Shown here: in pieces, positions 55,937-56,380 of the stretch
Layout: the number at the start of each line of letters is the position of its first letter
Numbering within the stretch: position 1 is the first letter of the stretch
Virus record (IMG/VR): IMGVR_UViG_3300029305_003800
Span: 35,787 to 99,786 of that record
DNA from: a virus
Lineage: Duplodnaviria; Caudoviricetes
DNA: 64,000 bases
Direction: 5' to 3' (one strand)
Program-made: the position numbers and the translations under genes
The notes under the pieces: model-generated
The model's database searches: none
The model's input: the letters and a program-made list of their open reading frames with translations, nothing else
What the model was told of the DNA's origin: nothing

Positions 55937-56380
55937 ATGTTGAGGTGGTGACAGAACACTGCTTGACGGCAGTAATGTATACAGTCTTGGAGATTGAAAT
56001 ATCTGTTGAGTGTTGATGAGCACAAACAAGAATGTAGTTGGTCATTATAATTCAGTAAAGACATGAGTGCGACTCGGGTTAGGAACATCTCCCATCTGAC
56101 ACGGAGGGATGAGTTATAAATATGTTCCAGTGAATTCCTAGGCAGTTGATACACAGTAATGTGCGTATAAGAGTGTGGCATTCAGTTCTTGGGGACAAAT
56201 CTGCTAAGTGAGGATAATATTATAAAAACAGTTTTAGTATTCTACCAGTCAGTCTCTGAGTTGGAGGTGAAAAGTCCTTCAGTCTTACATAAAGCACAAG
56301 CGTAATTAACTTGTGTGTCTTGGTCGAACATATTGTGTTATAATGAACTTGAGAGACTTGGTAAAATGTCTCTCCCACAT
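55937..56380 (+). ncRNA. large structured RNA, ROOL-like
   Basis: Nested long-range helices (56042-56050/56338-56346; 56058-56064/56315-56321; 56082-56088/56122-56128). Motif series AATTCAGTAAA, GGGTTAGGAA, CAGTGAATT, AAGAGTGTGGCATT, GACAAATCTG, GGTGAAAAGTCC resembles ROOL as recalled; not searched. Confidence 0.55.

Follow-up and report, generated by a model that had tools for sequence, protein, structure and literature searches.

The 64,000-nt stretch of DNA analysed here (the window) holds bases 35787-99786 of a 99,786-bp IMG/VR virus record that is rated 100% complete, the source being a complete ~100-kb (99.8-kb) phage from cattle rumen. The genes of the window run on the + strand, and 2.8 kb upstream of the large terminase gene (59145-61196) there is a 1.5-kb gap free of ORFs (55811-57332), with small hypothetical genes on both sides. 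This gap is an RNA-only unit, and its first gene is the structured RNA that we describe here (Table 1). The initial annotation had placed a compact ROOL-like large RNA at 55937-56380, boundaries that lie within 7 nt of the block conserved in a sister phage, and had correctly remarked that such an RNA would be shorter than typical ROOLs, since the conserved block measures 436 nt (424 nt in the sister phage) against about 580 nt. The promoter candidate at the head of the unit agrees with the consensus at 10 of 12 positions and is the top match within 55600-57500, and TTGAGG-16-TATACT can be read by eye upstream of the RNA copy in the sister phage. The only tRNA called in the window by ARAGORN and Rfam is a tRNA-Leu at 49182. 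The large terminase of the window is 683 aa long and intein-free; that of the sister phage has 1019 aa, and many close homologues (P0005, P0015-P0019, P0023, P0025 and others) have 800-1050 aa with intein or homing-endonuclease domains (PF14890, PF07591, PF14528). Many terminase relatives with 66-82% identity are present in Logan/ENA contigs.

Table 1. Features of the RNA gene and of its ORF-free island, in window coordinates
Feature	Position	Strand	Partner strand, composition or setting
Sigma-70-like promoter candidate	55848-55875	+	TTGAGC, 16-nt spacer, TATAAT; head of island
Structured RNA gene	55944-56379	+	conserved block; closed by P1 (55945-48/56375-78)
5' domain	55951-56036	+	hairpin P2/P2a and three-way junction P3 with P3a and P3b
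P2; P2a	55951-53/55976-78; 55959-63/55968-72	+	in MFE of both sequences
P3; P3a; P3b	55980-89/56027-36; 55991-94/56001-04; 56010-14/56019-23	+	in MFE of both sequences
P4, 5' strand	56042-56057	+	partner 56331-56346; A/U-rich long-range helix of 15-16 bp
P5/P5a, 5' strands	56060-56075	+	P5 56060-70/56178-87, P5a 56072-75/56171-74; enclose P6, the pseudoknot strand and P7
P6, long hairpin	56084-56129	+	hairpin in both sequences, in partly different registers
Pseudoknot, 5' strand GGCAG	56141-56145	+	partner CUGCU 56201-56205; directly before UUGAU
P7, hairpin with GNRA loop	56152-56171	+	CACA-GUAA-UGUG, then GUAUAAG
P8	56188-56260	+	56188-96/56252-60; holds AAAU, the pseudoknot 3' strand and a variable linker (~56206-56245)
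P9, hairpin with 8-nt loop	56261-56282	+	stem core GGAGG/CCUUC
P10, hairpin	56294-56316	+	same place in both sequences, unrelated sequence; 7 bp and 10 bp
P11, 3' hairpin	56351-56374	+	invariant 10-nt loop UUGGUAAAAU
tRNA-like element	56383-56441	+	4 nt after P1; 8-bp acceptor-like stem, middle arm, T-arm-like hairpin, 7-nt loop
Intrinsic terminator	57288-57318	+	9-bp stem, then T run; end of island

The sister phage, L023, is an 83-kb contig binned in a "Bacilli bacterium" MAG and carries a terminase 78% identical to that of the window. Its RNA copy (6545-6968) aligns to 55944-56379 at 67% identity (E 1e-24) and occupies the same syntenic slot. The RNA's phage is a rumen Bacilli phage. In L023 the RNA is followed by a tRNA-like element, a tRNA-Met, a module shared with window 56506-56610, a tRNA-Ala and a tmRNA. 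The two tRNAs and the tmRNA of this sister island lie at 7215-8122, and the tmRNA, to which ARAGORN assigns the tag AKQNIFARIINALAPKQYSQCAA, scores 43.7 bits with Rfam, slightly below the 47-bit cut-off; at the matching places the island of the window holds no recognisable tRNA or tmRNA. The shared module is a second conserved non-coding block (56506-56610 in the window, 7292-7397 in L023; 76% identity over 105 nt), which in L023 begins 3 nt after the tRNA-Met and belongs to the neighbouring RNA modules, apart from the 435-nt RNA. Directly upstream of the RNA, L023 encodes a PLP-dependent enzyme (5581-6459; PF00291, E 7e-53) that is absent from the window's slot.

Further copies were sought widely. 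BLASTN of the gap against GenBank phages and searches of IMG/VR returned no second copy, nhmmer with the gap or with a two-sequence profile found nothing in all fetched loci, and in IMG/VR, three scans with patterns drawn from conserved blocks yielded either no match or chance matches only (L032, L035-L046). Among 401 genomes from the order of the MAG, BLAST recovered only the known copy and one chance match (L034). The RNA is also absent, as judged by BLAST and a model of the 5' domain (R1), from terminase relatives at 49-55% identity (L004-L008, L011 and the whole records G003-G005, G406 and G407). A metagenome contig with 81% terminase identity (L018) lacks the whole island, which is therefore an accessory module that varies within this group of phages; there, ~1.1 kb (1629-2745) stands in for the window's 3.3 kb of small ORFs and RNA island. 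Only two diverged members are known, those of the window and of L023.

Nearly identical copies of the RNA stretch occur in 20 public runs, which come from 13 studies and almost all represent bovine gut or rumen; six of these 20 runs are RNA libraries. Over 55400-57700, one DNA run was compared with three RNA runs, each of the latter from a different study. In each of the three metatranscriptomes a single discrete contig of ~490 nt lies on the RNA gene (55867-56357 at depth 33.7, 55858-56339 at depth 143 and 55945-56421 at depth 16), while the downstream modules of the island are represented by contigs of depth 2-9 in RNA runs, so that the RNA gene contigs are 4-25 times deeper than these modules in the same RNA runs, depth being a weak measure. 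The flanking ORFs yielded nothing beyond short pieces of low likeness in the three RNA runs, whereas in the DNA run all bins were covered, flanking ORFs included. That the flanks are silent in RNA and covered in DNA serves as a control against DNA carry-over. Contigs give no transcript ends, strand or true level, and are used here for the presence of a discrete, comparatively abundant species. On this basis, 55944-56379 is a real RNA gene whose product is found as a discrete species in RNA libraries and, as far as contigs can tell, reaches high abundance in the cattle-rumen metatranscriptomes of several studies. The contig starts at 55858 and 55867 fall upstream of the -10 box of the candidate promoter. 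The near-equal lengths of the three contigs had raised the idea of a circular RNA, which was abandoned as the reads show no joints. At position 56164, between the P7 stem and GUAUAAG, all four runs (three RNA, one DNA) read A where the record has C, indicating that the C of the record is a minority allele.

Folded alone, the RNA of the window has an MFE of -113 kcal/mol, where shuffles average -110.8 +/- 5.3 (z = -0.41), and the minus strand reaches -85.9 kcal/mol (z = 0). Since the single-sequence fold is no better than that of shuffles, base pairs can be judged with outside data only, and since just two diverged members are known, covariation here amounts to one comparison plus strain variants. 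RNAalifold on the window and L023 sequences yields 91 consensus pairs, 21 of them compensatory (both sides changed, pairing kept), against 8.7 +/- 3.3 in 100 column shuffles that keep the conservation pattern; the consensus energy is -75 against -31 +/- 4.5 and the SCI 0.69 against 0.32, and none of the 100 shuffles reached the observed values. A less circular test, in which the structure is predicted in one sequence and scored in the other, gave the same picture: 22 of the 28 doubly changed pairs predicted from the window stay canonical in L023 (background 36%, p=6e-6), and in the reverse direction 22 of 34 were kept (p = 0.002). Moreover, the independent MFE folds of the two sequences contain the same helices (P1, P2/P2a, the P3 junction, a 16-bp P4, P5/P5a and P6-P11). 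The fold is conserved, as judged by covariation between the window and L023.

Strain variants in the runs add to this comparison. Half of the 16 variants fall on paired sites, where seven of eight keep pairing and the eighth breaks a pair; among those that keep it, one is a compensatory A-U to G-C change and five proceed via or resolve a G-U pair. G-U intermediates are neutral on the + strand alone, and these variants therefore point to that strand. Together with the G-U pairs of the consensus (13 and 10 in the two sequences) and the more stable fold of the + strand (-113 against -86), they point to transcription of the RNA from the + strand.

All six complementary pairs listed in the initial annotation are present in the window, but the comparison with L023 separates them. 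The closing stem TCATTATAA (56042-50)/TTATAATGA (56338-46) is kept and extends into P4, which shows 3 compensatory and 2 one-sided changes against L023; in addition, two strain variants within P4 (56047 A>G with 56341 T>C) compensate each other. GGCAG (56141-45)/CTGCT (56201-05) is likewise kept, as UGCAG/CUGCA, and turns out to be the pseudoknot. The 3' hairpin GAGAGAC (56351-57)/GTCTCTC (56368-74) recurs as GGGAUAC/GUAUCUC in P11, with 1 compensatory and 1 G-U change. For GGAACAT (56084-90)/ATGTTCC (56123-29) the hairpin holds (P6), but its register is partly shifted in L023 (AUAGGA/UCCUAU). Two proposals do not survive: AAGACAT (56058-64)/GTGTCTT (56315-21) and GACTCGGG (56071-78)/TCTGAGTT (56255-62) are complementary in the window but not in L023, and are replaced by the covarying helices P5, P5a and P8. 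P5 has 4 compensatory changes and P5/P5a together have 5, and the MFE of L023 itself forms P5/P5a; P8 has 2, and its interior is not conserved between the two phages.

The remaining helices behave in a similar manner. The 5' domain, with 5 compensatory pairs, is the most conserved region (88% column identity). P7 reads UUCUC-GUGA-GAGAA followed by UAUAAG in L023, and the four stem pairs of the window all covary; MAFFT had placed this element one column off, and the correct reading is a GNRA hairpin. P9 reads GAAGA-CGAAAGAU-UCUUC in L023. Further pseudoknot candidates are invariant 5-bp pairings only. The tRNA-like element that follows has the same fold in L023 (6972-7041), both copies being devoid of a D-arm: its acceptor stem covaries (GAGCAAUU/AAUUGCUC against GCAGUAUU/AAUACUGC), and the T-arm-like loop is UGCAAGU in the window and UUCAAGU in L023. 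Neither ARAGORN nor Rfam calls it a tRNA; it is probably a processing signal for RNase P or RNase Z.

Is this RNA a ROOL? By the Rfam model, to which the initial annotation had pointed as a check, it is not. RF03087 has 574 positions and a gathering cut-off of 99.1 bits. With cmscan against all 4227 Rfam 15 families the window yielded no ROOL or GOLLD match at gathering, and relaxing the threshold to E<=10 brought up neither family, whether 2.5 kb, the 601 nt surrounding the RNA or the L023 island was searched; RF03087 alone found nothing in the whole phage (G000) or in the MAG (G001). The model performed as expected on positive controls, the L. salivarius pMP118 ROOL, located from PMC5643018, scoring 130.4 bits, and four phage ROOLs retrieved from IMG/VR by a consensus pattern scoring 246-349 bits. 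By score and size, the RNA lies outside RF03087. In addition, nhmmer detected no sequence similarity between the RNA and the L. salivarius ROOL, and the strands of the ROOL 5' hairpin, four-way junction and inner three-way junction (ACAAUAGACG, AAUgCCAAUAA) have no counterpart motifs in the window or L023. Four loci that share the pattern match of L052 (L052, L055, L067 and L084) were considered as further ROOLs and rejected, none having a gathering match; L052, L055 and L084 have no RF03087 match at E<=1, and ROOL-type words are present in L052, L067 and L084. An assignment as RNase P RNA, suggested by the resemblance of GGAGGUGAAAAGUCC to CR-I, was also rejected, since L023 does not conserve this block and Rfam gives no match.

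The central core tells another story. The RNA, the RF03087 consensus and the phage ROOLs have in common, at equal spacing, a short strand, UUGA, a 5-bp GNRA hairpin, GUAUAAG and the 3' strand of an enclosing helix, and this module is followed by GUUC, a helix, AAAU, a variable stretch, GUU and a 5-bp hairpin with an 8-nt loop. A covariance model (R3) for which four phage ROOL cores supplied all training sequences, this RNA being excluded, was run over 347 kb on both strands, and matched the window at 56133-56288 (+) over the full model length with 22.0 bits (E 0.013); the top match was an L. salivarius ROOL outside the training set (27.0 bits, E 0.001). Within 46 kb the window core has E 0.0017, and at E<=0.05 there were five matches only, namely three ROOLs and both copies of the RNA. 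With filters off, R3 scores the equivalent site of L023 (6728-6883) at 17.3 bits. The best decoys over ~0.9 Mb reach 16.7-19.8 bits, the highest being a local match to an A/T-rich linker, and in a further 552 kb, mostly loci chosen for an exact match to a ROOL motif, the best non-ROOL has 16.7 bits; the window copy, unlike the L023 copy with its 17.3 bits, thus scores above all decoys. These E-values come from quickly calibrated models and are rough, and the core test is partly post hoc, since the shared motif was first spotted by eye. In the reciprocal direction, with a model made from the window RNA, true ROOLs score 12.8-16 bits (E 2-9).

Support of another kind comes from the pseudoknot, which is not modelled in R3. 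In a joint core alignment of the window, L023 and three ROOLs, each of the five sequences forms all 5 of its pairs (columns 9-13/70-74), 3 of which are doubly changed, and pairing over the core as a whole is 99%, as opposed to 34-48% once the partners are slid. The nesting is also that of ROOL: a closing P1, a 16-17 bp A/U-rich helix, and a helix of 12-15 bp that starts its 3' strand after GUAUAAG. The compact ROOL-like reading of the initial annotation is therefore borne out for the central core, by the R3 model, the pseudoknot columns and the helix nesting, but not for the 5' domain and the 3' subdomain. Outside the ~155-nt core nothing is demonstrably shared with ROOL: no similarity was detected for the 5' domain, and P6, P10 and P11 have no demonstrated counterpart either.

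Few bacterial or phage RNAs of unknown function are as large as ROOL and GOLLD, both of which have recently been shown to form RNA-only cages. ROOLs average 581 nt (range about 520-660), are found in rumen, in phages, in tRNA islands and at high abundance (Weinberg et al., 2017, PMC5737381; L. salivarius lncRNA, PMC5643018), and assemble into an octameric nanocage (PMC12286853; bioRxiv 10.1101/2024.12.08.627333), whose conserved inter-chain (quaternary) kissing loop is carried by the inner three-way junction. The RNA resembles ROOL in its cow-rumen origin, its phage encoding, its tRNA-island neighbourhood and its abundance, and in the order and nesting of the central core, which are equal through the hairpin with the 8-nt loop. 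P4 sits where ROOLs have a 17-bp long helix, the 3' strand of P5 begins right after GUAUAAG as in ROOL, P7 with its spacing is found both in the ROOL consensus and in phage ROOLs, P8 aligns to the ROOL hairpin that holds a variable linker, its variable interior corresponding to ROOL's disordered linker, and P9 aligns to ROOL's 5-bp hairpin. However, at ~435 nt the RNA is about a quarter smaller. ROOL's P1 has 16 bp and that of the RNA has 4 bp, complemented by an extra 3' hairpin, P11, for which ROOL has no counterpart. The 5' four-way junction of ROOL is a three-way junction of unrelated sequence, its inner three-way junction is the single hairpin P6, and its 3' subdomain is also one hairpin. 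These three regions of ROOL are thus reduced or replaced in the RNA. The evidence supports four to five multistem junctions (P1, P3, P4, P5a and possibly P8) where ROOL is reported with six, and one pseudoknot is conserved in ROOL's columns where ROOL is reported with three. Unlike ROOL, the RNA is directly followed by a tRNA-like element. As summarised in PMC12515178, Ling et al. found the ROOL cage undisturbed by fusion of a tRNA precursor to the RNA's 3' end, a result that fits the native arrangement of RNA and tRNA-like element seen here.

Two other groups of RNAs invite comparison. GOLLD (RF02032) is also a large and ornate phage or prophage RNA near tRNAs, and some GOLLDs carry tRNAs in or beside the RNA, but GOLLD is ~800 nt long with a conserved 3' half and another architecture, and has no match in the RNA at E<=10. 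The lncRNAs of Staphylococcus phage K are abundant phage non-coding RNAs beside tRNA genes, which their authors compared to ROOL and GOLLD by position and abundance (PMC9241854); they come from unrelated phages and resemble the RNA described here in position and abundance. A structured-RNA screen of IMG/VR reports motifs of 29-151 nt only (PMC10690425). The RNA matches no Rfam 15 family, and the papers that we found on ROOL describe no compact form.

The best explanation, to which we assign a probability of about 0.6, is that the locus encodes an abundant, stable structured ncRNA of ~435 nt that is a compact, strongly diverged relative of ROOL and may serve as an RNA-only scaffold. That its core shares ancestry with that of ROOL appears likely. 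A promoter in the region of 55848-55875 or a little further upstream would drive transcription, a cut by RNase P or RNase Z at the tRNA-like element 4 nt downstream would free the 3' end, and the RNA would accumulate as a stable species. During infection it might then self-associate into an RNA-only scaffold as ROOL does, and such a scaffold could act on or alongside the translation and tRNA machinery. That the RNA multimerises is conceivable by analogy with ROOL, though we rate it as less likely than not. Since the RNA is devoid of the three-way junction that bears ROOL's kissing loop, cage formation may not carry over. An appealing though rather doubtful scenario, again by analogy, is that of a natural minimal ROOL, a core-only 435-nt RNA that would self-assemble into an RNA-only particle of other size or stoichiometry and whose tRNA-like element would be a 3' handle, either retained or released.

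The main rival to kinship with ROOL is a convergent or exchanged module. The RNA would then represent an independent new family of large phage RNAs that has only a recurrent tertiary module (pseudoknot, GNRA hairpin and A-rich strand) in common with ROOL. The failure to match RF03087 and the weak reciprocal scores would follow naturally, as would a similarity confined to ~155 nt of core, a length of 435 nt against 574-659 nt, the extra hairpin P11 and a P1 of just 4 bp. We nevertheless regard this scenario as unlikely, since the likeness spans four consecutive helices plus the pseudoknot, with equal spacing and equal nesting inside two long helices, and since habitat, phage tRNA-island context and abundance equal those of ROOL. 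It is improbable that the RNA is instead a cis-acting processing or stability scaffold of the island transcript, for example one that presents tRNA-like RNAs to RNase P or RNase Z and has no role as a free RNA. Its place 4 nt upstream of a conserved tRNA-like element, at the head of an RNA-only unit between promoter candidate and terminator, would suit such a role, but its contigs are 4-25 times deeper than the downstream modules (a weak measure), and ~435 nt with some 16 covarying helices far exceed the needs of a processing signal. A ribozyme, self-processing or trans-acting, is very improbable: its large size, many junctions, pseudoknot and invariant single-stranded blocks would suit a ribozyme, but no ribozyme, RNase P or intron family matches at E<=10, the reads have no joints or cleavage-type ends, and ROOL is without known catalysis. 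Finally, the view that there is no RNA gene at all, but a DNA element (an origin or packaging site, 2.8 kb upstream of the large terminase) or the 115-aa ORF on the minus strand (55834-56181), is largely refuted by the discrete RNA contigs, by covariation through G-U pairs that makes sense for a + strand RNA only, by the sister copy, which across its whole length has no ORF of at least 50 aa on either strand and thus indicates that the ORF is not conserved, and by the relative with 81% terminase identity, whose missing island argues against an essential cis site.

If the RNA is indeed a compact relative of ROOL, a variant that is a quarter smaller amounts to a ready-made natural deletion experiment. 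It retains the core pseudoknot and the GNRA module without the junction of ROOL's inter-chain contact, and could therefore reveal which elements selection maintains, whether assembly can do without the missing parts and whether the link to tRNA-like elements is functional. Should the minimal form suggested above be true, it would show which parts of ROOL are essential and tie the cages functionally to phage tRNA biology. Since the Rfam ROOL model misses diverged relatives, the ROOL family in rumen phages may extend beyond its catalogued members, and the abundance of the RNA in rumen metatranscriptomes makes it accessible to experiment. The two best-scoring control phage ROOLs (L079 552-697 and L063 6880-7025) are each followed by two tRNA genes on the same strand within 100 nt, the same order of RNA and then tRNA as in the island of the window.
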